From a virus (Duplodnaviria; Heunggongvirae; Uroviricota; Caudoviricetes), in IMG/VR virus record IMGVR_UViG_2700989486_000005: a stretch of DNA of 14,975 bases; one strand, given 5' to 3'. The notes beneath the pieces are model-generated. The model was not told where the DNA came from, searched no databases, and saw nothing but the letters and a program-made list of their open reading frames with translations. Positions 1-14,975 of the stretch are shown here, piece after piece; position 1 is the stretch's first letter; the number at the start of each line of letters is the position of its first letter. A program made the translations under genes and the position numbers.

Positions 1-1465
1 CATGCTTCTCCAGCGTCCGGAGTTCTGCCTGAAGCGTCAGCAGGGCAGCATGAGCACTGTCTTCCTGACGATCGCCCGCAGACACCTTCACGCCGGACTG
101 TTTCGGCTTTTTCAGCGTCGCTTCATAATCCTTTTTCGCCGCCGCCATCAGCGTGTTGTAATCCGCCTGCAGGATTTTCCCGTCTTTCAGTGCCTTGTTC
201 AGTTCTTCCTGACGGGCGGTATATTTCTCCAGCGGCGTCTGCAGCCGTTCGTAAGCCTTCTGCGCCTCTTCGGTATATTTCAGCCGTGACGCTTCGGTAT
301 CGCTCTGCTGCTGCGCATTTTTGTCCTGTTGAGTCTGCTGCTCAGCCTTCTTTCGGGCGGCTTCAAGCGCAAGACGGGCCTTTTCACGATCATCCCAGTA
401 ACGCGCCCGCGCTTCATCGTTAACAAAATAATCATCCTTGCGCAGATTCCAGATGTCGTCTGCTTTCTTAAACGCAGCCTCTGCCTTAATCAGCATCTCC
501 TGCGCGGTATCAGGACGACCGATATCCAGCACCGCATCCCACATGGATTTGAATGCCCGCGCAGTCCTGTCTGCCCAGGTCTCCAGCGTGCCCATGTTCT
601 CTTTCAGGCGGCGGATCTGGTCATCAAACCCTTTCGTTGCGGCCTCGTTCGCCGCCTGCAATGCCCCGGCTTCATCGCCGGAACGCTGCAACTGAGCAAC
701 ATACGCAATCTGCTCCGTCGTCACGTTATGGAACTGGCGTGCCATCGCCGTCAGCCCCGACGTCGGGTCTGTGGTCAGCTTCCCGAAGGCTTCAGCGACC
801 TTGTCCACCTCCACGCCGGATGCAGAGGAGAAACGCGCCACACTCTGGCTGATGGACGCAATCTGAGCCTCACCGCTTACCCCCGCCTTAACCAGTGCGC
901 TGAGTGACTCGCTGGTCTGGTTAAACGTCAGCCCTGCCGCCTGCCCGGCTCTGGACAGGACCAGCATACGATCTGCCGTCAGTCCCGCCTGATTGCCGGA
1001 AAGGACCAGCGTTTTGTTGAAATCGGACAGGGTTGAGTTGCCCTGATACCAGGCATACGCCAGCGCACCGGTCGCCACCGCCAGCGAGGTGGCCCCCACC
1101 ATCGGCAGGGTGATCGCACCGGCAAGCCCCCTGAACATGGGGATCATCCCGCCGAAGGAGTCCTTCACCTGCCCCCCCTGTTGCAGCAGGATCAGCCACG
1201 GACTTTGCCCGCCTGCAAGCTGCGTGGCCACGTCGGTGAACTGTGCAGGCAGCATACGCATGGCGGCTTTATACTGCCCGACGGAAATCCCCGCTTTCTG
1301 TGCAGCCAGCGCCTGTCGGCTCAGCGACTGTTCAACGACTGCCGCTGTTTTTTTCGCATCACTTTCCGTACCGGAAAAATGACGCCTGACTCTGGCCATC
1401 TGCTCGTCAAATCTGGCCGCATCCAGACTCAAATCAACGACCAGATCGCCTACCGGTTCAGCCAT
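1..1465 (-). CDS. H: Tail tape-measure protein, N-terminal ~488 codons; 3' end lies beyond the window start
   Basis: Minus-strand frame is open from the ATG at 1463-1465 to the window edge; the first residues read MAEPVGDLVVDLS, matching lambda gpH as I recall it. Position directly after G/T matches lambda order. Absent from the ORF track because its stop is outside the window. Confidence 0.88.
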   Translation of the reverse strand, partial: MAEPVGDLVVDLSLDAARFDEQMARVRRHFSGTESDAKKTAAVVEQSLSRQALAAQKAGISVGQYKAAMRMLPAQFTDVATQLAGGQSPWLILLQQGGQVKDSFGGMIPMFRGLAGAITLPMVGATSLAVATGALAYAWYQGNSTLSDFNKTLVLSGNQAGLTADRMLVLSRAGQAAGLTFNQTSESLSALVKAGVSGEAQIASISQSVARFSSASGVEVDKVAEAFGKLTTDPTSGLTAMARQFHNVTTEQIAYVAQLQRSGDEAGALQAANEAATKGFDDQIRRLKENMGTLETWADRTARAFKSMWDAVLDIGRPDTAQEMLIKAEAAFKKADDIWNLRKDDYFVNDEARARYWDDREKARLALEAARKKAEQQTQQDKNAQQQSDTEASRLKYTEEAQKAYERLQTPLEKYTARQEELNKALKDGKILQADYNTLMAAAKKDYEATLKKPKQSGVKVSAGDRQEDSAHAALLTLQAELRTLEKH

Positions 1466-1892
1466 ACCGGACTCCTCCTGCGATCCCTTCTGATACTGTC
1501 ATCAGCATTACGTCATCCTCCGTCATGTCCGCCACATCCGGGGAAGCGGGGATAACTTCATTCCCGTCCGGGCCAAAGCGGACACCTCCGGCAAGCCCTG
1601 CCGCTTTCTGCATCAGCACATCATCTTCAGGCTCTTCGTCAGCCTCGCGCCGGTTCAGCAGACTGAAATCCAGCGGATGCATATCCGGATCGCTGAAAAA
1701 CAGGCTGAGCACGGTGTACGTCAGCCCGGAAAAGTGCATATCCAGCAGAACATCATGAAAATAATGGGTACTGTAAAAGCGGTGCCAGTCGGCATACTCC
1801 GTGGATGACATCCCGGCAAGCATGGCACGCCAGTCGGGTCGCCCCATCTCACGCGCCAGTTTCAGGGCAAAACTCAGCTCACCGTCGAACAC
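1458..1892 (-). CDS. T: T segment of the tail assembly chaperone, expressed only as a G-T fusion by -1 frameshift
   Basis: 144-aa ORF in the -1 frame relative to G, overlapping G's 3' end by 19 nt and H's start; length 435 nt equals lambda T; no independent start expected. Confidence 0.85.
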   Translation of the reverse strand: MFDGELSFALKLAREMGRPDWRAMLAGMSSTEYADWHRFYSTHYFHDVLLDMHFSGLTYTVLSLFFSDPDMHPLDFSLLNRREADEEPEDDVLMQKAAGLAGGVRFGPDGNEVIPASPDVADMTEDDVMLMTVSEGIAGGVRYG

Positions 1893-2296
1893 TTTCCCGC
1901 AGAAACAGGCTCTGCGGGCCCGGCGTCCTCTGTCTGTTCAGGGGCATTATTCACCACAAACTCATACATACCAGACAGCCGGTACACCACGTTTTCAGCA
2001 TGAGAAATTGCCTCCGTGGGCCAGGTGGTAAGCACTTCCTGCTCAATCTGTTTAACGGCTTCATTCATGGACGGCATCTGCGTCTTCTGCGGATGGTTAT
2101 GCCACAGGGACATCGCCACCAGAAACGCGCCGGTTCTGATGGCGTCTTCCACAGTAAACTTCCGGTTGCTGTCTGACTCCGCCTGTTCTGCCTGCCGTTT
2201 CATCAGGGCGAGATGCTCAATGCGCTGCAGGGCTGACAGTTCAGAAAGCGTGACGGTCACACCGTTATGTTCAAATGATTCGGTTTTCTGGAACAT
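1874..2296 (-). CDS. G: Tail assembly chaperone G
   Basis: 140-aa ORF (MFQKTESFEHNGVTVTLSEL...) matching lambda gpG length and sequence as recalled; stop TGA at 1874-1876. Confidence 0.92.
   Translation of the reverse strand: MFQKTESFEHNGVTVTLSELSALQRIEHLALMKRQAEQAESDSNRKFTVEDAIRTGAFLVAMSLWHNHPQKTQMPSMNEAVKQIEQEVLTTWPTEAISHAENVVYRLSGMYEFVVNNAPEQTEDAGPAEPVSAGKCSTVS
1892..1898 (-). other. Programmed -1 ribosomal frameshift slippery heptamer G GGA AAG (G to G-T)
   Basis: Plus-strand ctttccc at 1892-1898 is the reverse complement of GGGAAAG, placed so that GGA and AAG are G-frame codons (Gly-Lys) six codons before the G stop. Same position as the lambda G/T frameshift site. Confidence 0.8.
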
Positions 2297-2311
2297 CGCT
2301 GACTCTCCGGA

Positions 2312-3052
2312 TTAACTGGCGGTGACGGTAATTTCTGCAACCGCAGCAAACTCACCATTACCGGATACAACCGGAATGTTGACCTTGCCTGCAGCAACGC
2401 CGTTCACGGTGATGGTCATACCACTGACCGACACGGTGGCTTTTGTTTTATCCGCAGACACCGCACGAAAGCTCTTGTCGGTTACGCCCTCCGGCTGGAA
2501 GGCCACGGTCAGCGTGGTGCTCTGCCCTTTCACCACCGAGGTGCTGGAAGGCGTCACGGTCATGCCGGTTGCCGCTGTTACCGTGCTGCGATCTTCTGCC
2601 ATCGACGGACGTCCCACATTGGTGACTTTCACCGTGCGGGTGATCACTTCCTTCGCCGTCACCGCCTTACCGATACTGCTGACCCAGCCACGGAACACAT
2701 CGACCGTGCCGTTCGGGAAGCGGATTTTATAGGCTCGGGTATCGCCTTCATTAAACCACGCCAGCAGCGCCTGCTGCCCCTGCTCTCCGGGCATCCACGC
2801 CAGCGTGAAGCTGGTATCTCCGGCAGATTTCTGCCCCTGCCCGGTCGCAGTCCAGTCTGCATCTTCATCATCGAGATAGCTGTCGTCATAGGACTCAGCG
2901 GTCAGTTCGCCGGGCGTCAGGTCTTTAACTTTTGCCAGACGCGACCAGTCAACGTCTGAAAGCGGATTCGCATAAGGGTCACCGCTCCCCTTATAAACCC
3001 ACAGGGTGGTCCCGGCACCTTTCACCGGCATTGTAGGATTTGGTACAGGCAT
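2312..3052 (-). CDS. V: Major tail tube protein
   Basis: Track ORF 2312..3082 is a 5'-extension; residues from [22 protein letters not shown] match lambda gpV (246 aa), so the start is set at 3052. Confidence 0.92.
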
Positions 3053-3059
3053 AGCGTCC

Positions 3060-3455
3060 TCACATTTCATAGGTAATGACATAAGTCAGATCGGCTGAAC
3101 TCCACAGGCCCGCATCATCGTCGCGCCGGTAGTCATAGCCACTGGCCACCATACTGGTGATCAAATCTGACAGTGCCGGGATATCGCTCATCACCGGATA
3201 AATCCGGGACTCCATCCACGCATCCAGCTCTGAATCCGGCACCTGAGCAGGCAGGAAAACTTCGATATGCAGCTCCGCCTGCCAGGTATCGCTGTCCAGC
3301 TCTTCGCCCGTGTATTCAGCGCCGGTGAGATAAACGGCAACTGCCGGAAAATCCGCCTCATCAAAAACAGCGGGGCGACCATCAAAAAACGTCGCCCCGG
3401 TGTCATGCTTCTCCAGTGCATCCAGTACGGCTGCACGGAGTTCAGTATGTTTCAT
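3060..3455 (-). CDS. U: Tail terminator protein
   Basis: 131-aa ORF ([28 protein letters not shown]...) with lambda gpU length and position; 4-nt overlap with Z. Confidence 0.92.
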
Positions 3456-4030
3456 CGCTTTATTACCATCCTCAGTTGATGCTGCAGCGCATAGCCCAGC
3501 TCTTTCGGAAGACGTTCACGCCGTATCCGCTCAATATTTTGTTTAAACGCCGTGGTCAGCGGCACCGCCATCGGGATTTTCACCACATCAATGGGGTAAC
3601 GGTTTTTCCCGGCCACACGCTGCATGACATGCCACCGGCCATTTTTCAGTTGCTGAATAAACGCGCCGGGAATACGACGGTTACCCACCACAAGCACGCT
3701 GCCGCCACCTTTCAGGGATGAACGCTGCCCCTTTTTACGACGCCTGCGGCGCGAAAGGACAACCCGCGCATTACCCAGCTTGATTACGGGCAAATCCCCC
3801 CGGTTAACTTTGATTCTGGCCTGCGGATTTTTGACCGTGGCCCTTTTCAGCCTGGCCCTTTCCTTTACCAGTTTCCGGCGTACCTTTGTCTCACGGGCAA
3901 CCTGTGACGCCGACTGCGATATCGCGGATGAAGCAACGCGGTTAATGGCCATTGCGGCGGCACCAGGCACCGCCGTTTTGCTGATACGGCTGAGGTTTTC
4001 AACGGCCTGCTCAAGACCTTTTATGGCCAT
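3452..4030 (-). CDS. Z: Tail completion protein
   Basis: 192-aa ORF in the lambda gpZ position with the same length; 4-nt start/stop overlap with U. Confidence 0.9.
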   Translation of the reverse strand: MAIKGLEQAVENLSRISKTAVPGAAAMAINRVASSAISQSASQVARETKVRRKLVKERARLKRATVKNPQARIKVNRGDLPVIKLGNARVVLSRRRRRKKGQRSSLKGGGSVLVVGNRRIPGAFIQQLKNGRWHVMQRVAGKNRYPIDVVKIPMAVPLTTAFKQNIERIRRERLPKELGYALQHQLRMVIKR

Positions 4031-4041
4031 ACATCCCCCTT

Positions 4042-4395
4042 TCAGCGGCGACGGTTAACGGCAGGCGGTACGCCCCGTCCAAGCCAGAGATGACAACTTC
4101 CGCCATCATCCGGCGAAACCCGATCTACCCAGAAATTTTCCTCACCGATGGTCAGCGTGTCTCCACGCCGCAGCTGCCGCACCTCATCAGTCCGGACAAA
4201 CAGGGACGGGCTGGAGCCTTCAACGCGCACGCCCTGTCCGGCATAGCTGATATTTTCAGGGTCATCAAAAACACCACGTATCACCGCACCTGACTGCTCA
4301 CCGGATGTAATGGTGGCTGACGTTCCCATGTACCCGCGTATCGTTTCATCGGCGCGGGCAATGGCAGCATCGAACAGGTTATCGAAATCAGCCAC
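4042..4395 (-). CDS. FII: Head-tail connector / head completion protein
   Basis: 117-aa ORF (MADFDNLFDAAIARADETIRGYMG...) matching lambda gpFII in length and position. Confidence 0.9.
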   Translation of the reverse strand: MADFDNLFDAAIARADETIRGYMGTSATITSGEQSGAVIRGVFDDPENISYAGQGVRVEGSSPSLFVRTDEVRQLRRGDTLTIGEENFWVDRVSPDDGGSCHLWLGRGVPPAVNRRR

Positions 4396-4406
4396 AGCGC
4401 CTCCCG

Positions 4407-4805
4407 TTATTGCATTCTGGCCAGGCCGCGCTCTGTCATTTCGGCTGCCACACCGGCAGAGACACGAAACGCCGTTCCCGGCAGCACAAATGCCACAGGT
4501 TCATCCCGCGTGGCGTGAAGTGCATCAGTATGCAGCTTCACCAGTGCCACGACCGTGACCAGTTCAGACGTATCCAGAATCACGGTATCCGGCTGCGCTG
4601 ATCCCACCTCATTTTCATGTCCGGTCAGCACATTTTCCCGGCTGAGAGGGGTGTCCTGACCGGCAGTTTCATCCGTGTCATCAAGCTCCTCTTCCAGCTC
4701 TGCCACACGGAGCGCCAGTTCTTCTTTCGTCCCCGTCAGGCTGACATCACGGTTCAGTTGTTCACCCAGCGAGCGGAGACGGGCAATCAGTTCATCTTTC
4801 GTCAT
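4407..4805 (-). CDS. FI: DNA packaging accessory protein
   Basis: Track ORF 4407..4844 is 5'-extended; residues from MTKDELIARLRSLGEQLNRDVSLTG match lambda gpFI (132 aa). Confidence 0.9.
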   Translation of the reverse strand: MTKDELIARLRSLGEQLNRDVSLTGTKEELALRVAELEEELDDTDETAGQDTPLSRENVLTGHENEVGSAQPDTVILDTSELVTVVALVKLHTDALHATRDEPVAFVLPGTAFRVSAGVAAEMTERGLARMQ

Positions 4806-4846
4806 GGACTCCTCCACAGAGAAACAATGGCCCCGAAGGGCCATGA

Positions 4847-5872
4847 TTACGCCAGTTGTACGGACACGAACTCATCAGGGTCAGCCAGCAGCATCAGCGG
4901 TGCTGACTGAATCATGGTGAACTCACGCGCCGGATCGCCGGTGGTCACCCAGTTTTTCGGGTAACGGGCAGAGGCGTTAATGCCTTCGCGCTGTGCGTCC
5001 GCATCCTGAATGCAGCCATAGGTGCGCAGACCGCGTGCCTGAGTGTTCCCCAGCACCATCGTGTTGTCCGGCAGGAAGTTCTTTTTGACGCCGTTTTCCA
5101 CGTACTGTCCGGAATACACGACGATGGCCACATCGCCATACATCCCCTTATAGGACACCGCTTTACCTAGGTCTTTCACCGCTGTCTCCAGCTCGGAATT
5201 AGAGCCACGACGGGTATCCAGCTTCTCCTTGACGGCTTTGAAGGAACGGAACAGCGCCCAGCCTTTCGGATCGAACACGATGATATTCACCACACCGCTG
5301 GCGTTCAGCGCGTAGGCTTCGATATCGTCGGTCGGGTCATACGTGGACTTGTCACGCTTGCTCCACTCCGTGCCGCCGGACTGCGTGATGTTATTCTCCT
5401 CACTGCGGCCCATATCCACCTCAACCGGATCGAAGGCTTCACCGGTCATGGTGTATTTGCCCTTAAGCACGGCAGAAACTGCCTGCATCTCTTCGACCTG
5501 AGCAATGGCCAGCTCTTCGTCACGCATGTTCTGCATGATGATGCGACGGCGGCGGTAAGCCGGGTCCGCCAGATTCTGCGGATCTTCATCCGGCAGGCGA
5601 CGCAGGGTCATCTGCGGATTCACTTCATGCTTCGGCTTGACATATCCCGGCGTAAATTCAGAGGTGGAGCCGCCACGGGAACGGATAACCTCACCGGAAA
5701 CAATCGGCGAAACGTACAGCGCCATGTTTACCAGTCCCGGAATTTGTGAGAGATAGACTTTCTCCGTGGTGAAGGGATAGCTCTCACGGAAAAAGAGACG
5801 CAGAAACAGCGGATCAAACTTAAATTTCTGCTCATTTGCCGCCAGCAGTTGGGCGGTTGTGTACATCGACAT
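4847..5872 (-). CDS. E: Major capsid protein
   Basis: Track ORF 4847..5899 is 5'-extended; residues from MSMYTTAQLLAANEQKFKFDPLFLRLFF match lambda gpE (341 aa). Confidence 0.95.
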   Translation of the reverse strand: MSMYTTAQLLAANEQKFKFDPLFLRLFFRESYPFTTEKVYLSQIPGLVNMALYVSPIVSGEVIRSRGGSTSEFTPGYVKPKHEVNPQMTLRRLPDEDPQNLADPAYRRRRIIMQNMRDEELAIAQVEEMQAVSAVLKGKYTMTGEAFDPVEVDMGRSEENNITQSGGTEWSKRDKSTYDPTDDIEAYALNASGVVNIIVFDPKGWALFRSFKAVKEKLDTRRGSNSELETAVKDLGKAVSYKGMYGDVAIVVYSGQYVENGVKKNFLPDNTMVLGNTQARGLRTYGCIQDADAQREGINASARYPKNWVTTGDPAREFTMIQSAPLMLLADPDEFVSVQLA

Positions 5873-5927
5873 AAAAAAATCCCGTAAAAAAAGCCGCACA
5901 GGCGGCCTTTAGTGATGAAGGGTAAAG

Positions 5928-6260
5928 TTAAACGATGCTGATTGCCGTTCCGGCAAACGCGGTCCGTTTTTTCGTCTCGTCGCTGGCAGCCTCCGGCCAG
6001 AGCACATCCTCATAACGGAACGTGCCGGACTTGTAGAACGTCAGCGTGGTGCTGGTCTGGTCAGCAGCAACCGCAAGAATGCCAACGGCAGCACCGTCGG
6101 TGGTGCCATCCCACGCAACCAGCTTACGGCTGGAGGTGTCCAGCATCAGCGGGGTCATTGCAGGCGCTTTCGCACTCAATCCGCCGGGCGCGGTTGCGGT
6201 ATGAGCCGGGTCACTGTTGCCCTGCGGCTGGTAATGGGTAAAGGTTTCTTTGCTCGTCAT
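5928..6260 (-). CDS. D: Capsid decoration / stabilisation protein
   Basis: Residues from [27 protein letters not shown] match lambda gpD (110 aa); the track adds two codons at the 5' end. Confidence 0.95.
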
Positions 6261-6269
6261 AAACATCCC

Positions 6270-6875
6270 TTACACTGGTGTGTTCAGCAAATCGTTAACG
6301 GCATCAGATGCCGGGTTACCTGCAGCCAGCGGTGCCGGTGCCCCCTGCATCAGACGATCCAGCGCAGTGTCACTGCGCGCCTGTGCACTCTGTGGTGCTG
6401 CGGCCAGAATGCGGCGGGCCGTTTTCACGGTCATACCGGGGGTTTCTGCCAGCACGCGTGCCTGTTCTTCGCGTCCGTGAGCCTCCTCACAGTTGAGGAT
6501 CCCCATAATGCGGCTGTTTTCTGCCGCAACCGCTGCGGTGATCTGCGCGTTCACGTCCGGCTGCGCCGCGCTGGCGTTCTCGCCCTCCGTCGCTGGCACC
6601 ACGTCAGTAACGTCAGCCTGCGAAGCAGTGGCTGAAACAGTTGTTGATTGAGTCTCTTTGGTCATTCGCCCTCCTGAGAGACGGGATTTACGTGCATCCA
6701 GTGCATCACGCATGACGGTGATCGCATCGGTGCTGTTAACAAGTTCATCAGCCAGTCCGGCATCAATGGCCTCCTGACCGCTGTACACTGCAGCCTCGGT
6801 ATCCAGCACAGCCTGCACGGACAGGCCGGTATATGCCGACACCTTCTGCGCAAACATCCGGCGGGTTGCGTCCAT
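6270..6875 (-). CDS. nu3: Scaffolding protein Nu3, nested in-frame in the 3' third of C
   Basis: In-frame ATG at 6873-6875 (MDATRRMFAQKVSAYTG...) sharing the C stop codon; corresponds to the lambda C/Nu3 nested arrangement. The internal start is inferred by homology of position, not proven from sequence. Confidence 0.7.
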   Translation of the reverse strand: MDATRRMFAQKVSAYTGLSVQAVLDTEAAVYSGQEAIDAGLADELVNSTDAITVMRDALDARKSRLSGGRMTKETQSTTVSATASQADVTDVVPATEGENASAAQPDVNAQITAAVAAENSRIMGILNCEEAHGREEQARVLAETPGMTVKTARRILAAAPQSAQARSDTALDRLMQGAPAPLAAGNPASDAVNDLLNTPV

Positions 6876-7569
6876 CCGGGACTGCAGTGTCTCCCGGACG
6901 TCATCCGGAAGATGGCTGTAGGGGTTGCCATCCACCTTATGGCTGCCGCTGTAAATCAGCGTGATTTCCACACCCTGTTTCTCCAGCGCAGCACCGTAAT
7001 TACTGTGAGCCATCATGACGCCGATGGAGCCTGTCCGGGCGGTCTGCGTGACCAGACGCCGGGAGGCGGCACTGGCAAGCAACTGACCTGCACTGCAGTT
7101 CATGTCGTTGGCAAGCGCCCATACCGGTTTTATGTCACGCACACGGGCGATGATGTCAGCGCAGTCAAATGCCCCCGCCACCATCCCGCCGGGCGTGTCC
7201 ATATCGAGCAGAATGCCGTCCACCATCGGATCGCTGGCAGCCTGTTGCAGACGGGCGATAATGCCGTTGTAACCGGTCATCCCCGAGTACGGCTGCAGCG
7301 CCCGCGTCCGGCTGACCAGCGTGCCGGACACCGGCAGCACGGCGATGCCGTTCATGACCTGATAACTGCGGGCCTGTCGTGGTCCGTCATCATCACCGGA
7401 TAATGCCAGCGTCGCGAGTGCCTCCTGGGCAGTCAGGCTGTCGCCGGACACCGCATCCGTCAGGCGGCTGATCCCAAGCTGGCCTGCAAGCGCACAAAAG
7501 AAAACCCGCGCATAGGCGGGTTCAAGCATCAGCGGCTCATTAAAGGCCATGCTGGCAATATGCGGGAGA

Positions 7570-7589
<20 letters not shown>
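6270..7589 (-). CDS. C: Capsid maturation protease/scaffold C (S49/ClpP-like), 439 aa
   Basis: Track ORF 6270..7724 is 5'-extended through an open frame; residues from (V/M)TAELRNLPHIASMAFNEPLMLEPAY match lambda gpC. Likely GTG start at 7587-7589, overlapping the 3' end of B by 20 nt as in lambda. Confidence 0.9.
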
Positions 7590-11270
<3,681 letters not shown>

Positions 11271-11296
<26 letters not shown>

Positions 11297-11816
11297 TCAG
11301 CAACCCCGGTATCAGTTCATCCAGCGCGGCTGCTTTGTTCATGGCTTTGATGATATCCCGTTTCAGGAAATCAACATGTCGGTTTTCCAGTTCCGGAAAA
11401 CGCCGCTGCACCGACAGGGGGAGCCCGTCGAGAATACTGGCAATTTCACCTGCGATCCGCGACAACACGAAAGTACAGAATGCGGTTTCCACCACTTCAG
11501 CGGAGTCTCTGGCATTCTTCAGTTCCTGTGCGTCGGCCTGCGCACGCGTAAGTCGATGGCGTTCGTACTCAATAGTTCCTGGCTGGAGATCTGCCTCGCT
11601 GGCCTGCCGCAGTTCTTCAACCTCCCGGCGCAGCTTTTCGTTCTCAATTTCAGCATCCCTTTCGGCATACCATTTTATGACGGCGGCAGAGTCATAAAGC
11701 ACCTCATTACCCTTGCCACCGCCTCGCAGAACGGGCATTCCCTGTTCCTGCCAGTTCTGAATGGTACGGATACTCGCACCGAAAATGTCAGCCAGCTGCT
11801 TTTTGTTGACTTCCAT
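11271..11816 (-). CDS. nu1: Terminase small subunit (cosB-binding)
   Basis: 181-aa ORF (MEVNKKQLADIFGASIRTIQNWQEQGMPVLRGGGKGNEVLYDSAAVIKWYAERDAEIENEKLRREVEELRQ...) matching lambda gpNu1; N-terminal winged helix-turn-helix; lies immediately next to cos. Confidence 0.95.
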
Positions 11817-12040
11817 TGTTCATTCCACGGCCAAAAACAGAGAAAGGAAACGACAAAGGCCCAAAAGTTCGTTTTCAGCACCTGTCGTTTCCTTTCTTTT
11901 CAGGGGGTATTTTAAATAAAAACATTAAGTTACGACGAAGAAGAACGGAAACGCCTTAAACCGGAAAATTTTCATAAATAGCGAAAACCCGCGAGGTCGC
12001 CGCCCCGTAACCTGTCGGATCGCCGGAAAGGACCCGCAAA
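11817..12040. other. cos region: cosB (Nu1/IHF sites), cosN with the 12-nt cohesive-end sequence, and cosQ
   Basis: Plus strand at about 11994-12005 reads aggtcgccgccc, the reverse complement of the lambda cohesive end GGGCGGCGACCT. Flanks match lambda left-end (gcgaaaacccgcgaggtcgccgccc) and right-end (cgtaacctgtcggat) sequences joined head to tail. An AT-rich IHF-type segment lies at about 11900-11950. Confidence 0.85.
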
Positions 12041-12204
12041 ATGATAATAATTATCATCTACATGTCACAACGTGCATCTACGCCATCAAACCACGTCAAA
12101 TAATCAATTATGACGCAGGTATCGTATTAATTGATCCGCATCAACTTAACGTAAAAACAACTTCAGACAATACAAATCAGCGACACTGAATACGGGGCAA
12201 CCTC

Positions 12205-12399
12205 ATGTCAACGAAGAACAGAACCCGCAGAACAACAACCCGCAACATCCGCTTTCCTAACCAAATGATTGAACAAATTAACATCGCTCTTGATCAAAAA
12301 GGGTCCGGGAATTTCTCAGCCTGGGTCATTGAAGCCTGCCGTCGGAGGCTAACGTCAGAAAAGAGAGCATATACATCAATTAAAAGTGATGAAGAATGA
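12205..12399 (+). CDS. Small basic protein with predicted ribbon-helix-helix (Arc/CopG-like) DNA-binding fold; function unknown
   Basis: 64-aa ORF with ATG start. Basic N-terminus (MSTKNRTRRTTTRNIRF), then a beta-strand / helix / GSGN turn / helix pattern (NIRFPNQMIEQINIALDQKGSGNFSAWVIEACRRRL). Same size and position as the small ORF next to cos in lambda and, as I recall, ylcI of the K-12 DLP12 prophage. Opposite strand to the late operon. Confidence 0.6.
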   Translation: MSTKNRTRRTTTRNIRFPNQMIEQINIALDQKGSGNFSAWVIEACRRRLTSEKRAYTSIKSDEE

Positions 12400-12492
12400 A
12401 CATCCCGCGTTCTTCCCTCCGAACAGGACGATATTGTAAATTCACTTAATTACGAGGGCATTGCAGTAATTGAGTTGCAGTTTTACCACTTT

Positions 12493-12530
12493 CCTGACAG
12501 TGACAGACTGCGTGTTGGCTCTGTCACAGG
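12493..12530. terminator. Candidate stem-loop between convergent ORFs (gtgacaga ... tctgtcac, ~8-bp stem, 12-nt loop)
   Basis: Inverted repeat seen in the sequence between the stop of the 64-aa ORF and the stop of the 68-aa ORF; no clear U-tract, so terminator function is uncertain. Confidence 0.3.
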
Positions 12531-12563
12531 TTAAGTAGTTTGAATGATTAGCAGTTATGGTGA

Positions 12564-12770
12564 TCAGTCAACCACCAGGGAATAATCCTTCATATTATTA
12601 TCGTGCTTCACCAACGCTGCCTCAATTGCCCTGAATGCTTCCAGAGACACCTTATGTTCTATACATGCAATTACAACATCAGGGTAACTCATAGAAATGG
12701 TGCTATTAAGCATATTTTTTACACGAATCAGATCCACGGAGGGATCATCAGCAGATTGTTCTTTATTCAT
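12564..12770 (-). CDS. Small acidic hypothetical protein (68 aa)
   Basis: ATG start with GGAG Shine-Dalgarno about 8 nt upstream on the minus strand. Same size and position as a lambda right-end ORF and, as I recall, ybcW of DLP12. No recognisable catalytic motif or transmembrane segment. Confidence 0.6.
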
Positions 12771-13055
12771 TTTGTCGCTCCATGCGCTTGCTCTTCATCT
12801 AGCGGTTAAAATATTACTTCAAATCTTTCTGTATGAAGATTTGAGCACGTTGGCCTTACATACATCTGTCGGTTGTATTTCCCTCCAGAATGCCAGCAGG
12901 ACCGCACTTTGTTACACAACCAATACTATTAATTGAAAACATTCCTAATATTTGACATAAATCATCAACAAAACACAAAGAGGTCAGACCAGATTGAAAC
13001 GATAAAAACGATAATGCAAACTACGCGCCCTCGTATCACATGGAAGGTTTTACCA

Positions 13056-13466
13056 ATGGCTCAGGTTGCCATTTTTAAAGAAATATTCGATCAAGTGCGA
13101 AAAGATTTAAACTGTGAATTGTTTTATTCTGAACTAAAACGTCACAATGTCTCACATTATATTTACTATCTAGCCACAGATAATATTCACATTGTGTTAA
13201 AAAACGATAACACTGTGTTAATAAAAGGACTTAAAAAGGTTGTAAATGTTAAATTCTCAAGAAATACGCATCTTATAGAAACGTCCTTTGATAGGTTGAA
13301 ATCAAGAGAAATCACATTTCAGCAATACAGGGAAAATCTTGCTAAAGCAGGAGTTTTCCGATGGGTTACAAATATCCACGAACATAAAAGATATTACTAT
13401 ACCTTTGATAATTCATTACTATTTACTGAGAGCATTCAGAACACTACACAAATCTTTCCACGCTAA
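13056..13466 (+). CDS. Hypothetical protein, possibly DUF1398/YbcV-like (136 aa from ATG 13056; alternative starts ATG 13014 or TTG 12933)
   Basis: The track ORF 12933..13466 starts at a TTG. ATG at 13056 ([50 protein letters not shown]...) has a GGAAGG Shine-Dalgarno-like motif about 8 nt upstream and gives 136 aa. Lies upstream of bor on the same strand in AT-rich DNA. Family assignment is from memory and unverified. Confidence 0.6.
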
Positions 13467-13756
13467 ATCATAACGTCCGGTTTCTTCCGTGTCAGCACCG
13501 GGGCGTTGGCATAATGCAATACGTGTACGCGCTAAACCCTGTGTGCATCGTTTTTAATTATTCCCGGACACTCCCGCAGAGAAGTTCCCCGTCAGGGCTG
13601 TGGACATAGTTAATCCGGGAATACAATGACGATTCATCGCACCTGACATACATTAATAAATATTAACAATATGAAATTTCAACTCATTGTTTAGGGTTTG
13701 TTTAATTTTCTACACATACGATTCTGCGAACTTCAAAAAGCATCGGGAATAACACC

Positions 13757-14050
13757 ATGAAAAAAATGCTACTCGCTACTGCGCTGGCCCTGCTTATTAC
13801 AGGATGTGCTCAACAGACGTTTACTGTTCAAAACAAACAGACAGCAGTAGCACCAAAGGAAACCATCACCCATCATTTCTTCGTTTCTGGAATTGGGCAG
13901 AAGAAAACTGTCGATGCAGCCAAAATTTGTGGCGGCGCAGAAAATGTTGTTAAAACAGAAACCCAGCAAACATTCGTAAATGGATTGCTCGGTTTTATTA
14001 CTTTAGGCATTTATACTCCGCTGGAAGCGCGTGTGTATTGCTCAAAATAA
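13757..14050 (+). CDS. bor: Bor outer-membrane lipoprotein (serum-resistance lysogenic-conversion protein)
   Basis: 97-aa ORF MKKMLLATALALLITGCAQQTFTVQNKQ... with signal peptide and lipobox L-I-T-G-C; matches lambda Bor apart from a few substitutions as recalled. Transcribed opposite to the late genes, as in lambda. Confidence 0.93.
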   Translation: MKKMLLATALALLITGCAQQTFTVQNKQTAVAPKETITHHFFVSGIGQKKTVDAAKICGGAENVVKTETQQTFVNGLLGFITLGIYTPLEARVYCSK

Positions 14051-14056
14051 TTGCAT

Positions 14057-14082
14057 GAGTTGCCCATCGATATGGTCAGCTC
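14057..14082. terminator. Imperfect hairpin between convergent bor and Rz (gagttgcccat cgat atggtcagctc)
   Basis: Inverted repeat seen immediately 3' of the bor stop and overlapping the Rz stop. I recall the equivalent lambda site as a perfect palindrome; here the stem carries mismatches or wobbles. Confidence 0.35.
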
Positions 14083-14543
14083 TATCTGCACTGCTCATTA
14101 ATATACTTCTGGGTTCCTTCCAGTTGTTTTTGCATAGTGATCAGCCTCTCTCTGAGGGTGAAATAATCCCGTTCAGCGGTGTCTGCCAGTCGGGGGGAGG
14201 CTGCATTATCCACGCCGGAGGCCGTGGTGGCTTCACGCACTGACTGACAGACTGCTTTGATGTGCAACCGACGACGACCAGCGGCAACATCATCACGCAG
14301 AGCATCATTTTCAGCTTTCGCATCAGCTAACTCCTTCGTGTATTTTGCATCGAGCGCAGCAACATCACGCTGACGCATCTGCATGTCAGTAATTGCCGCG
14401 TTCGCTAGCTTCAGTTCTCTGGCATTTTTGTCGCGCTGGGCTTTGTAGGCGATTGCGTTATCACGGTAATGATTGACCGCCCATGACAGGCTGACGATGA
14501 TGCAGATAATCAGAGCGGATATAATCGCGGTTACTCTGCTCAC
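14082..14543 (-). CDS. Rz: Spanin, inner-membrane subunit (i-spanin)
   Basis: Track ORF 14082..14555 begins at a non-ATG codon; residues from (V/M)[59 protein letters not shown] match lambda Rz (153 aa) with an N-terminal transmembrane segment. Its start overlaps the endolysin stop. Confidence 0.9.
14141..14323 (-). CDS. Rz1: Spanin, outer-membrane lipoprotein subunit (o-spanin), embedded in Rz in the +1 frame
   Basis: 60-aa [63 protein letters not shown]: lipobox VVGC and proline-rich mature region, wholly inside Rz, as in lambda. Confidence 0.87.
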
Positions 14544-14729
14544 TGTTGCCCCCACAAACAGACTTCACGCTCAATCTCACGACGAGTCATCAGGCCTTTC
14601 CATTGCTTACCGCCAGCGTATGTCCAGCGACGCAGCTGATCACATGCGCCTTTGATATCGCCCTGGTTTATTTTGCGAAGAAGCGTCGATGTTCTAAAAT
14701 TGCCAGCACCCACATTGTAAACGAATGAG
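14540..14729 (-). pseudogene. Endolysin, T4-lysozyme (GH24) type, 3' fragment only; 5' part displaced by an IS1 insertion
   Basis: Minus-strand frame encodes ...[62 protein letters not shown] ending at the Rz start. This is the conserved C-terminal region of GH24 phage lysozymes (as in P22 gp19 or DLP12 RrrD) and is unlike lambda R. The apparent ATG and the first residues MESLP of track ORF 14540..14743 are encoded by the IS1 terminal repeat, not by the lysozyme gene. Confidence 0.8.
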
Positions 14730-14975
14730 GGTAATGACTCCAACTTATTGATAGTGTTTTATGTTCAGATAATGCCCGATGACTTTGTCATGCAGCTCCA
14801 CCGATTTTGAGAACGACAGCGACTTCCGTCCCAGCCGTGCCAGGTGCTGCCTCAGATTCAGGTTATGCCGCTCAATTCGCTGCGTATATCGCTTGCTGAT
14901 TACGTGCAGCTTTCCCTTCAGGCGGGATTCATACAGCGGCCAGCCATCCGTCATCCATATCACCACGTCAAAGGG
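14730..14975 (-). mobile_element. IS1 insertion sequence, right end (IRR plus 3' part of insB); the element continues beyond the window
   Basis: Sequence from about 14730 begins GGTAATGACTCCAACTTATTGATAGTGTTTTATGTTCAGATAATGCCCGATGAC, the characteristic IS1 terminal inverted repeat, followed by the insB 3' coding region. Confidence 0.9.
14745..14975 (-). CDS. insB: IS1 transposase InsB, C-terminal 76 codons (partial; 5' end outside the window)
   Basis: Minus-strand translation ...[73 protein letters not shown] matches the IS1 InsB C-terminus; the frame stays open to the window edge. Confidence 0.88.

Follow-up and report, generated by a model that had tools for sequence, protein, structure and literature searches.

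The window, a 14,975-nucleotide stretch of Caudoviricetes DNA, holds at 12010-13756 a segment with three separate small genes: ylcI (64 aa; 12205..12399, plus strand), ybcW (68 aa; 12564..12770, minus strand) and ybcV (136 aa; 13056..13466, plus strand). The G+C content of this segment is 39.0%, against 57.0% for the head genes at 1-11816, where the lowest value of any equal-sized control window was 53.6%; this bears out the AT-richness claimed in the preliminary description, and the AT-richest portion is ybcV (31.4% G+C).

The cosN overhang AGGTCGCCGCCC (11994-12005) lies just outside the segment, and position 12006 corresponds to lambda 48502 in the coordinate map; the segment therefore falls exactly between cos and bor, where that description had placed it within a lambdoid phage, and its initial ~30 nt still belong to cos. 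The packaging-termination subsite cosQ (12029..12035, minus strand; AGGACCC) is the complement of lambda 48473-48479, which we take to be the exact lambda coordinates of cosQ, and the phage 434 record carries a cosQ annotation at the position equivalent to 12029-12035. The role of cosQ, together with the subsites and factors of cos, is described in PMC4669245. On the right, the segment is bounded by the serum-resistance lipoprotein gene bor (13757..14050, plus strand; Pfam Lambda_Bor, E = 1.4e-30), whose product is identical to K-12 BorD and differs from lambda Bor at three residues.

The same gene set, order, orientation and spacing are found at the right end of lambda (NC_001416, 46,753-48,502: bor, lambdap78, lambdap79, an unannotated DUF3950 ORF and cosQ) and in the borD-ybcV-ybcW-ylcI-nohD block of the E. 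coli K-12 prophage DLP12. Nucleotide identity of 12010-13756 is 98.4% to lambda 46,753-48,498 (~1.6% substitutions) and 99.9% to phage PhiR26_1; two E. coli chromosomes are 100% identical across the segment, and their prophage genes are annotated ylcI, ybcW and ybcV by RefSeq. Furthermore, 4101 of 5426 complete E. coli genomes match at least part of the region. Relative to lambda and DLP12, YlcI differs at one residue and YbcV at three, whereas YbcW is 100% identical to both lambda p79 and K-12 YbcW; the adjoining Rz and R are of the 434/PA-2 type, unlike those of lambda. The R gene in this stretch is disrupted by IS1.

All three genes are already catalogued in E. coli and correspond to the unnamed ORF, p79 and p78 of lambda, so that the segment, which has been part of the lambda reference sequence since 1982, is not new and contains nothing undescribed.

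Gene families and coding evidence

Running antisense to the late genes, ylcI specifies a basic protein (pI 10.5) of the DUF3950 (YlcI/YnfO) family; this protein scored 71.4 bits against Pfam PF13132 (cut-off 25) and 36.6 bits against NCBIfam NF041551 (cut-off 30). Compared with 20 diverse members, for which diversity was taken from a representative-library protein search, the product has every residue of the family core IRFP...NFSAWV.EAC; I15, R16, F37 and V41 are invariant among these members, and F17, S38, W40, A44 and C45 nearly so. The N-terminal domain shows a pN/pS of ~0.10 against phage BP-4795, despite the unrelated flanking DNA there. Database searches with YlcI and YbcW mostly brought up error-laden lambda copies on ENA contigs of roughly 3.5 kb, presumed to be a sequencing control fragment, and added no useful diversity.

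The ybcW gene is the last before cos and lies in late-operon sense, co-oriented with Rz and Nu1; the break in gene orientation from the late operon, as described earlier, holds for ylcI and ybcV and fails for this 68-aa ORF. Its product is acidic (pI 4.9), has no membrane segment and is matched over positions 1-68 of 68 by PHROG 657 (E = 7.5e-48); no Pfam, PDB or PADLOC family was found for it, the best score in PADLOC-DB v2 being Mem_04 at 12.8 bits. Against homologues ~80% identical, pN/pS is 0.45-0.47. Lambda p79 activates the Vulcan NADase defence system, and phages that escape Vulcan are without p79 (bioRxiv 10.64898/2026.09.04.749371); triggering this abortive-infection system is the sole demonstrated activity of YbcW. 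CRISPRi alone scores p79 as essential, in work whose authors show that polarity gives false positives, and p79 is not needed for lambda growth.

The ybcV product belongs to DUF1398 (Pfam PF07166, with a score of 156.4 bits where the cut-off is 22 and an alignment that spans positions 1-119 of the 119-position profile), is 80.9% identical to K-12 YdfO, and matches the YdfO NMR structure (PDB 2HH8) at E = 2.8e-72 over residues 40-177 of the long ORF. It is soluble and basic, with no hydrophobic segment or signal peptide, and its gene shows a pN/pS of 0.26 against ydfO. The three ORFs listed in the preliminary description (64 aa, plus; 68 aa, minus; 136-177 aa, plus) are all present, the 136-aa form of the last, from the ATG at 13056, being the most likely. 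The 177-aa reading (12933-13466, plus strand) is unlikely; its 41-codon extension starts with a non-ATG codon (TTG at 12933 here, GTG in lambda), has no Shine-Dalgarno sequence and contains a mapped PdhR-binding box, and both K-12 and the RefSeq E. coli genomes annotate YbcV at 136 aa. CRISPRi scored p78 and bor as non-essential and lambda recombinants with ybcV::kan are viable, and ybcV is dispensable for lambda. The best match of YbcV in PADLOC-DB v2 (REase_II, 17.4 bits) was treated as compositional noise. YdfO overexpression is stated to increase resistance to oxidative stress (PMC4077768), a statement that was not located in the main text of the source cited there.

Lambda RefSeq/GenBank records name p78 a "head protein" or "envelope protein", and such product names stand in NC_001416, in related records and in the label of PHROG 413. 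That p78 is a virion protein is nonetheless extremely improbable: its gene runs counter to the late operon and is sparsely distributed, with tblastn matches in only 43 of the 50,697 phage records and none in lambda-type phages such as 434, while the product is non-essential, carries neither signal peptide nor membrane segment, and belongs to a family, DUF1398, with a cytoplasmic paralogue whose structure comes from structural genomics. The labels themselves originate from a GeneMark prediction note; they are unsupported and should not be propagated.

We also see next to no probability that the ORFs are spurious and the segment merely cis-acting AT-rich DNA beside cos. Small size, AT-richness and a promoter scan without enrichment would fit that view, but pN/pS values of 0.26-0.47 across ylcI, ybcW and ybcV indicate purifying selection on all three, Shine-Dalgarno-like sequences precede all three start codons (for ybcV, that of the 136-aa form), and the ORF families are conserved across genera; moreover, the YdfO paralogue was expressed and its structure solved, and expression of p79 has a phenotype. 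Further ORFs (12603-12809, plus; 12697-12936, plus; and shorter ones) lie on the opposite strand of the real genes, overlap them and have no family support. A 37-aa ORF at 12076-12189, present in some lambda records, was discounted as a gene, given that lambda has GTG at its start and the present sequence ATC.

The three products are thus already covered by Pfam, NCBIfam or PHROG families, with one paralogue structure solved, and the family and structure searches placed none of them in a well-characterised housekeeping family, so that the outcome named in the preliminary description as refuting its view did not occur. The earlier statement that none has an assignable function holds as regards biochemistry; the genes are nonetheless not undescribed, given the named families and the Vulcan-trigger phenotype of p79.

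Intergenic regions and transcription

ylcI and ybcW converge on an intergenic region (12400..12563) over which their transcript 3' ends overlap in K-12, and ExcludonFinder classes the pair as a convergent excludon, seen in 50% or more of the RNA-seq samples from K-12 (PMC12288877). A consensus scan found no strong intrinsic terminator at 12400..12563, and Rfam 15 gave no match at an E of 1 or better over 11700-14975. The divergent regulatory region between ybcW and ybcV (12771..13055) comprises a PdhR box and the doubtful 41-codon extension; the box, ATCTGGTCTGACCTCTT (12978-12994), is an exact match to the DLP12 genomic SELEX site, with zero such matches expected by chance. In a pdhR mutant, ybcV and ybcW mRNA decreased about 10-fold as determined by RT-qPCR (PMC7660256), and overexpression of T4 MotB, which perturbs H-NS repression, induced DLP12 ybcV and ybcW more than 1000-fold. 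All three genes are transcribed in K-12, as published for DLP12 rather than for the present prophage.

Downstream of ybcV by 57 nt, the consensus scan located a weak terminator-like hairpin followed by a T-run (13523..13548, plus strand); the region yielded 4 sites against 1.8 ± 1.7 in shuffles, and this match is therefore not significant. A candidate sigma-70-like promoter 5' of bor (13601..13627, plus strand; TGGACA, 15 nt spacer, TACAAT) is a consensus match that corresponds to a promoter feature annotated in phage HK629. Promoter and terminator scans showed no enrichment over shuffled sequence, and a repeat scan of the segment found nothing above chance.

Lying in late-operon sense, ybcW would be made from the pR' late transcript during the lytic cycle; in the prophage state, it would be expressed from a PdhR-dependent promoter in the divergent region, from which ybcV would be expressed as well. 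YbcV, like bor, is most likely a prophage-expressed factor acting on the host.

Distribution among phages, prophages and satellites

We searched 50,697 phage records by tblastn and found YlcI in 155, YbcV in 43 and YbcW in 40. The combinations vary: phage 434 has ylcI and bor only, phage PhiR63_1 has ylcI and ybcW, the Qin prophage and phage ev099 have ynfO and ydfO, and phage BP-4795 has a DUF3950 gene alone, beside an unrelated packaging module of the HNH-TerS-TerL type. IMG/VR scans with YbcV and YbcW gave 80 kept loci, which are uninformative for selection or context statistics because they are 97-100% identical. Both families, DUF3950 and DUF1398, recur in Qin and ev099 next to cos and nohA, again on the strand opposite the late genes, but there the two genes are adjacent and co-directional, without ybcW and bor; YnfO of Qin has another, longer C-terminal tail (77 aa). 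More distant DUF3950 relatives are found in phage satellites of the PICI-like type; among the 20 family members sampled, two carry a fusion to the N-terminal DNA-binding domain of a terminase small subunit (Terminase_2).

These data agree with the view of the region as a moron-type accessory zone, since gene content varies among related phages, p78 and p79 are dispensable, and the genes are transcribed from a K-12 prophage. The moron concept for lambdoid phages (bor, lom) was reportedly set out by Juhala and colleagues in 2000. Lambdoid morons and the segment are alike in deviant base composition (here beyond the range of all control windows), variable presence and lytic dispensability, and probably in prophage expression, which is documented for DLP12. 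Presence or absence among homologous phages is true of ybcW, ybcV and bor and false of ylcI, which 155 phage records retain at this junction and which is also known from satellites, and is therefore more like a fixed regulatory gene than cargo. From these sequence comparisons, ylcI appears as the constant gene, antisense at the lysis-packaging junction, with ybcW, ybcV and bor as interchangeable moron-type cargo.

A prophage-encoded anti-phage or superinfection-exclusion system is, in our estimation, a very unlikely identity for the cassette. It does sit among lysogenic-conversion genes such as bor, consists of AT-rich variable cargo, and has genes that are expressed from cryptic prophages; ydfO is also listed, as a table entry only, among the genes lost in one spontaneous phage-resistant mutant of avian pathogenic E. 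coli. However, no PADLOC family scored above noise for the cassette proteins, p79 does the opposite of defence by betraying the phage to Vulcan, and no phenotype is reported in the literature consulted.

Candidate roles of YlcI and its neighbours

Taken together, the segment very probably represents the accessory region, dispensable to the phage, at the right end of a lambdoid prophage of the lambda/DLP12 type, consisting of cosQ, then three separate small genes, then bor; this degree of confidence applies to the whole explanation jointly, including a regulator role for YlcI, the expression scheme proposed for ybcW and ybcV, and the division into anchor and cargo.

An AlphaFold2 model of YlcI built on a shallow alignment was poor (pLDDT 62.9), and one built on 20 diverse sequences was better. 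The predicted layout is strand-helix-helix, with Arc, Mnt and ribbon-helix-helix (RHH) antitoxins as the top structural matches at weak scores; YlcI is probably an RHH DNA binder. Small size and the predicted layout are common to YlcI, to Arc and Mnt of phage P22, and to the antitoxins TacA, VapB, MazE9 and CopA; the N-x-R-x-P strand motif reads NIRFP in YlcI and NLRWP in Arc, and a G-x-x-x-S turn preceding helix 2 is shared by YlcI and Arc-type RHH proteins, whereas a long basic N-terminal arm and a charged C-terminal tail are specific to DUF3950. With hhalign, DUF3950 aligned to Arc in the correct register at E = 0.003 and only 10% probability; none of the 20 DUF3950 members matched a Pfam RHH family at E < 0.05, and searches of PDB sequences with the family profile and with the single YlcI sequence returned nothing. 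A repeat scan and an alignment of the cos-ylcI spacer across phages found no operator-like repeat 5' of ylcI; an operator is not inferable from this spacer because the lambda-type copies are near-identical and that of BP-4795 is unrelated. Unlike these RHH repressors and antitoxins, YlcI has no known operator or partner gene of its own.

One reading makes ylcI and ybcV a toxin-antitoxin-type pair (RHH antitoxin, DUF1398 toxin), split by insertion of ybcW in lambda and DLP12. The arrangement in Qin and ev099, where 57 nt separate a DUF3950 gene from a co-directional DUF1398 gene, is consistent with this, as is the 77-aa DUF3950 tail variant that accompanies the adjacent DUF1398 gene. We nevertheless regard such a pair as quite unlikely: most phage records with DUF3950 are without DUF1398 (155 versus 43), all examined satellite loci have DUF3950 alone, and lone DUF1398 also occurs (ycgX). 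In the present segment, a gap of 656 nt that accommodates the oppositely oriented ybcW divides ylcI from ybcV, and the two are separate transcription units; no toxin or defence family matched above noise (best, PADLOC REase_II at 17 bits), and RHH antitoxins are over-represented in structural match lists because many of their structures have been solved.

YlcI, a small basic protein whose gene is transcribed away from cos and against the late operon, is proposed to be an RHH regulator. As a dimer it would bind DNA, govern the antisense unit from which it is itself expressed, and counteract transcription heading for cos and the terminase genes. An extended form of this proposal, which we put forward as improbable, makes ylcI not cargo but a conserved RHH regulator guarding the lysis/packaging boundary, whose antisense transcription or repression would block prophage-state read-through into cos and the terminase genes, and whose domain satellites would have borrowed. 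Such a guard would act through repression, convergent transcription or a combination of the two, with the PdhR-dependent ybcW promoter as one source of read-through; were a lysogen to produce terminase, its chromosome would be cleaved at the cos site of the resident prophage. Satellites may reuse the DUF3950 domain, sometimes fused to a TerS DNA-recognition domain, to manipulate the packaging module of a helper phage.

YlcI could alternatively be tied to DNA packaging rather than to general regulation, binding close to cos or where the terminase operon begins, limiting terminase expression or cos cleavage in the lysogen, and redirecting packaging in satellites; to this we assign a low probability. 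To our knowledge, lambda packaging has been reconstituted and genetically dissected without any YlcI-like factor, which counts against such a role, and ylcI is antisense to the packaging genes, to whose cos site its linkage could be hitch-hiking. The DUF3950 gene does always adjoin the packaging module in the compared phages, even that of the HNH-TerS-TerL type in BP-4795, and one of the two Terminase_2 fusions comes from a satellite that neighbours a prophage, the last 53 residues of this fusion sharing 64% identity with the N-terminal end of the TerS which that prophage encodes; these fusions are rare, however, and show only that both domains bind DNA. Distant homologues in int-alpA-primase satellites, and the report of cf-PICIs with YlcI/YnfO genes (PMC13612085), likewise speak for a link to packaging, but the satellite DUF3950 gene adjoins alpA and replication genes rather than the satellite terminase gene.

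As it stands, the segment matters little: roughly three in every four complete E. coli genomes have its y-gene ORFs at least partly. It is among the few parts of lambda without assigned biochemistry, and p79, as the protein sensed by Vulcan, lends the region slightly greater interest. Besides the unsupported labels of p78, a usable lead is the 64-aa protein, probably of the RHH type, which stays at the junction of lysis and packaging modules whatever the terminase type and recurs in PICI-like satellites.

Position and limits of the segment

Lambda-type head and packaging genes occupy positions 1–11816 on the minus strand, where A, W, B and the remaining genes precede Nu1 (11271–11816, minus strand; Pfam Phage_Nu1, E = 2.5e-100). 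The 12-nt cohesive-end sequence lies at 11994–12005 and the last lambda base, 48502, aligns with position 12006; this makes the segment at 12010–13756 the reverse complement of lambda 46,753–48,498. Identity is 98.4% with lambda, 99.9% with phage PhiR26_1 and 100% with two E. coli chromosomes. On the right of the segment come bor, Rz and a shortened endolysin gene, which leads into a fragment of an IS1 transposase. Of 5426 complete E. coli genomes, 4101 match the region at least in part and 954 match its full length; an Rfam search returned no family in the region.

The segment has a G+C content of 39.0%, versus 57.0% for the structural genes, and same-size windows across the structural part never fell below 53.6%, bearing out the AT-richness claimed in the preliminary description. 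All three small ORFs lie where that description had placed them, and its reading of the stretch as an accessory zone was correct: the feature at 12010–13756 is real and correctly described, but it is already known. As a cos-to-bor stretch the segment holds in general, except that its initial 30 nt are still part of cos, with cosQ at 12029–12035, the place at which the phage 434 record also annotates it. The proposed break from late-operon orientation fails for the 68-aa ORF, which is co-oriented with the late operon.

Six nucleotides past cosQ, at 12041–12057, we observed an 8-1-8 palindrome, ATGATAAT-A-ATTATCAT, whose lambda version is 7-1-7 with a different centre base as well; it is kept in all aligned lambda-type cos phages, which are nearly identical throughout. 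A sigma-70-like site (minus strand, 12068 to 12041, 10/12 matches) overlaps it and is directed towards cos and Nu1. Several lambda-type records annotate a 37-aa ORF at 12076–12189 (plus strand; PHROG 9395). This is probably no real gene; its start codon is ATC here versus GTG in lambda, and the cos–ylcI spacer has ten substitutions, four of them at the first two codons of this ORF.

Identity and expression of the three genes

The 64-aa product, YlcI, matches DUF3950 at 71 bits (cut-off 25) as well as the NCBIfam YlcI/YnfO model. Lambda p79 and K-12 YbcW (PHROG 657) have the same sequence as the 68-aa product, for which no Pfam family matched. The 136-aa product, which corresponds to lambda p78 and YbcV, belongs to DUF1398 over its full length and is 81% identical to YdfO (NMR structure, PDB 2HH8). 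RefSeq annotation of a 100% identical E. coli locus covers all three genes. The third ORF had been given as 136–177 aa; the 136-aa form, from the ATG at 13056, stands and is the one in RefSeq, whereas the 177-aa form is improbable, since the extension has a TTG start here (GTG in lambda), is without a ribosome-binding site and holds a transcription-factor site.

A Shine-Dalgarno-like sequence is present for each gene, and no hydrophobic segment was found in any of the three proteins; YlcI is very basic (pI 10.5) and YbcW acidic (pI 4.9). Between diverged homologues, pN/pS was 0.40 for ylcI versus ynfO, 0.45–0.47 for ybcW and 0.26 for ybcV versus ydfO. The N-terminal 50 codons of ylcI, compared with phage BP-4795, gave a pS of 0.51 and a pN of 0.053 amid unrelated surrounding DNA, so the conservation lies in the protein itself and goes beyond that of the cos-linked DNA. 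All three ORFs are real genes.

The K-12 ybcV–ybcW divergent region binds PdhR, and both mRNAs are ~10-fold lower in a pdhR mutant (PMC7660256); the exact PdhR box occurs here at 12978–12994. The pair ybcW–ylcI appears in a K-12 list as a convergent excludon (PMC12288877), and overexpression of T4 MotB, which perturbs H-NS repression, raised DLP12 ybcV and ybcW more than 1000-fold (PMC7827196). By CRISPRi, bor and p78 are non-essential and p79 was called "essential", contrary to the literature; the authors trace such calls to polarity on long transcripts (PMC10695390), and we infer that a p79 roadblock halts the late transcript ahead of Nu1. Viable lambda recombinants have acquired ybcV::kan from DLP12 (PMC3945230). 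A defence role for the segment finds no support, and a defence-family search matched none of the three proteins. Co-expression of p79 with the NADase defence system Vulcan is toxic, and all seven sequenced lambda-vir escapers (7/7) had lost p79 via recombination with Qin (bioRxiv 10.64898/2026.09.04.749371), which fits the Qin arrangement of flanking DUF3950 and DUF1398 genes with no ybcW.

RefSeq names p78 "head protein" (the PHROG 413 label) in lambda records NC_001416, NC_019711, NC_042057 and others, and older records have "putative envelope protein". Both labels are unsupported, being contradicted by antisense orientation, distribution, dispensability, soluble sequence and DUF1398 membership.

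Flanking lysis genes and lambda DNA in other assemblies

The endolysin gene (within 14540–14966, minus strand) is cut down to its C-terminal 67 codons (Phage_lysozyme, profile positions 70–125) and is joined directly to the last 73 residues of an IS1 transposase (14745–14966), which makes a lysis defect of the prophage probable. In NZ_CP066032, whose locus is otherwise identical, rrrD is intact. Rz and the remaining R (14400–14729) are 100% identical to PhiR29 and 99.4–99.7% to phages 434 and PA-2. Rz carries 2.7% substitutions versus lambda in a head-to-head alignment, above every gene of the segment, and 2 of 31 nt differ in the bor–Rz spacer, near which a mosaic joint may lie. The 290-nt ybcV–bor spacer (13467–13756) shows zero substitutions versus lambda and a single 1-nt indel at 13551, where ~4–5 differences are expected given 1–2% in the flanking genes; either constraint on the promoter region of bor or a patch of recent recombination could be the cause.

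Lambda right-end DNA also turned up in assemblies from unrelated organisms (loci L090–L128; proteins P0001–P0240): in Streptomyces, Pseudomonas, Cohnella, Flavobacterium and Shewanella, in a plant and in a "Campylobacter phage", often on ~3.5 kb contigs, with thousands of error-laden copies in ENA assemblies. These look like lambda control fragment contamination and both swell and skew the homologue lists of the proteins.

Gene arrangements and the DUF3950 family

Homologues of YlcI, YbcV and YbcW occur in 155, 43 and 40 phage records, respectively. In window orientation, lambda and DLP12 read Nu1(−) cos ylcI(+) ybcW(−) ybcV(+) bor(+) Rz(−), DLP12 of K-12 having the identical order borD-ybcV-ybcW-ylcI-nohD; phage 434 reads cos ylcI(+) bor(+) Rz(−), Qin and ev099 cos ynfO(+) ydfO(+) and onward, PhiR63_1 cos ylcI(+) ybcW(−) gnsB(−) and onward, and BP-4795 TerL(−) TerS(−) HNH(−) DUF3950(+) Rz(−). 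The DUF3950 gene is the constant element: in every compared arrangement it is antisense and adjoins the packaging module, irrespective of terminase type. The other genes, ybcW, ybcV and bor, behave like exchangeable cargo. The Qin arrangement would suit a toxin-antitoxin pair of ylcI and ybcV, but the two families do not obligately co-occur and the genes are separate units in the window. DUF3950 proteins have a 77-aa C-terminal tail variant where a DUF1398 gene directly follows (K-12 Qin, L089, 3757–4458; ev099, L252, 204–904) and a 64-aa variant where none does; this split could mark a recombination breakpoint near codon 50 of the DUF3950 gene or a functional link between tail and DUF1398.

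DUF3950 is a small family: 1.84 billion proteins contain 141 representatives at 50% identity. Beyond Escherichia, its members are found on elements with an integrase, AlpA and a D5_N/DUF5906 primase, which are PICI-like satellites, in agreement with reported YlcI/YnfO genes in cf-PICIs (PMC13612085). Two of 20 sampled members are fused to the N-terminal DNA-binding domain of a Terminase_2 small subunit; one fusion sits in a prophage-adjoining satellite, and over its C-terminal 53 residues it shares 64% identity with the N-terminus of that prophage's TerS. Such TerS fusions and the gene's position suggest a packaging-linked role for YlcI; the well-defined packaging system of lambda and the location of the gene within satellites speak against it.

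In two E. coli loci (L253/L254; CP027459.1, AP026754.1; 1–10363) a satellite directly adjoins a prophage block of lysis genes, KilA-N, DUF3950, HNH and TerS. It holds an integrase, two antisense DUF3950 genes (one a TerS N-terminal domain fusion), DUF4222, a D5_N primase, its own Terminase_2 TerS and a capsid gene. Prophage terS and a single small gene are followed by the satellite integrase gene, an order that resembles insertion of the satellite into the packaging operon.

The best-supported explanation identifies the segment with the accessory right end already known from lambda/DLP12-type prophages, in which ylcI is a fixed antisense gene for a small, predicted DNA-binding regulator and ybcW, ybcV and bor are variable moron-type cargo. 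Among the new leads, the most testable is that YlcI would be a ribbon-helix-helix regulator at the lysis–packaging boundary.
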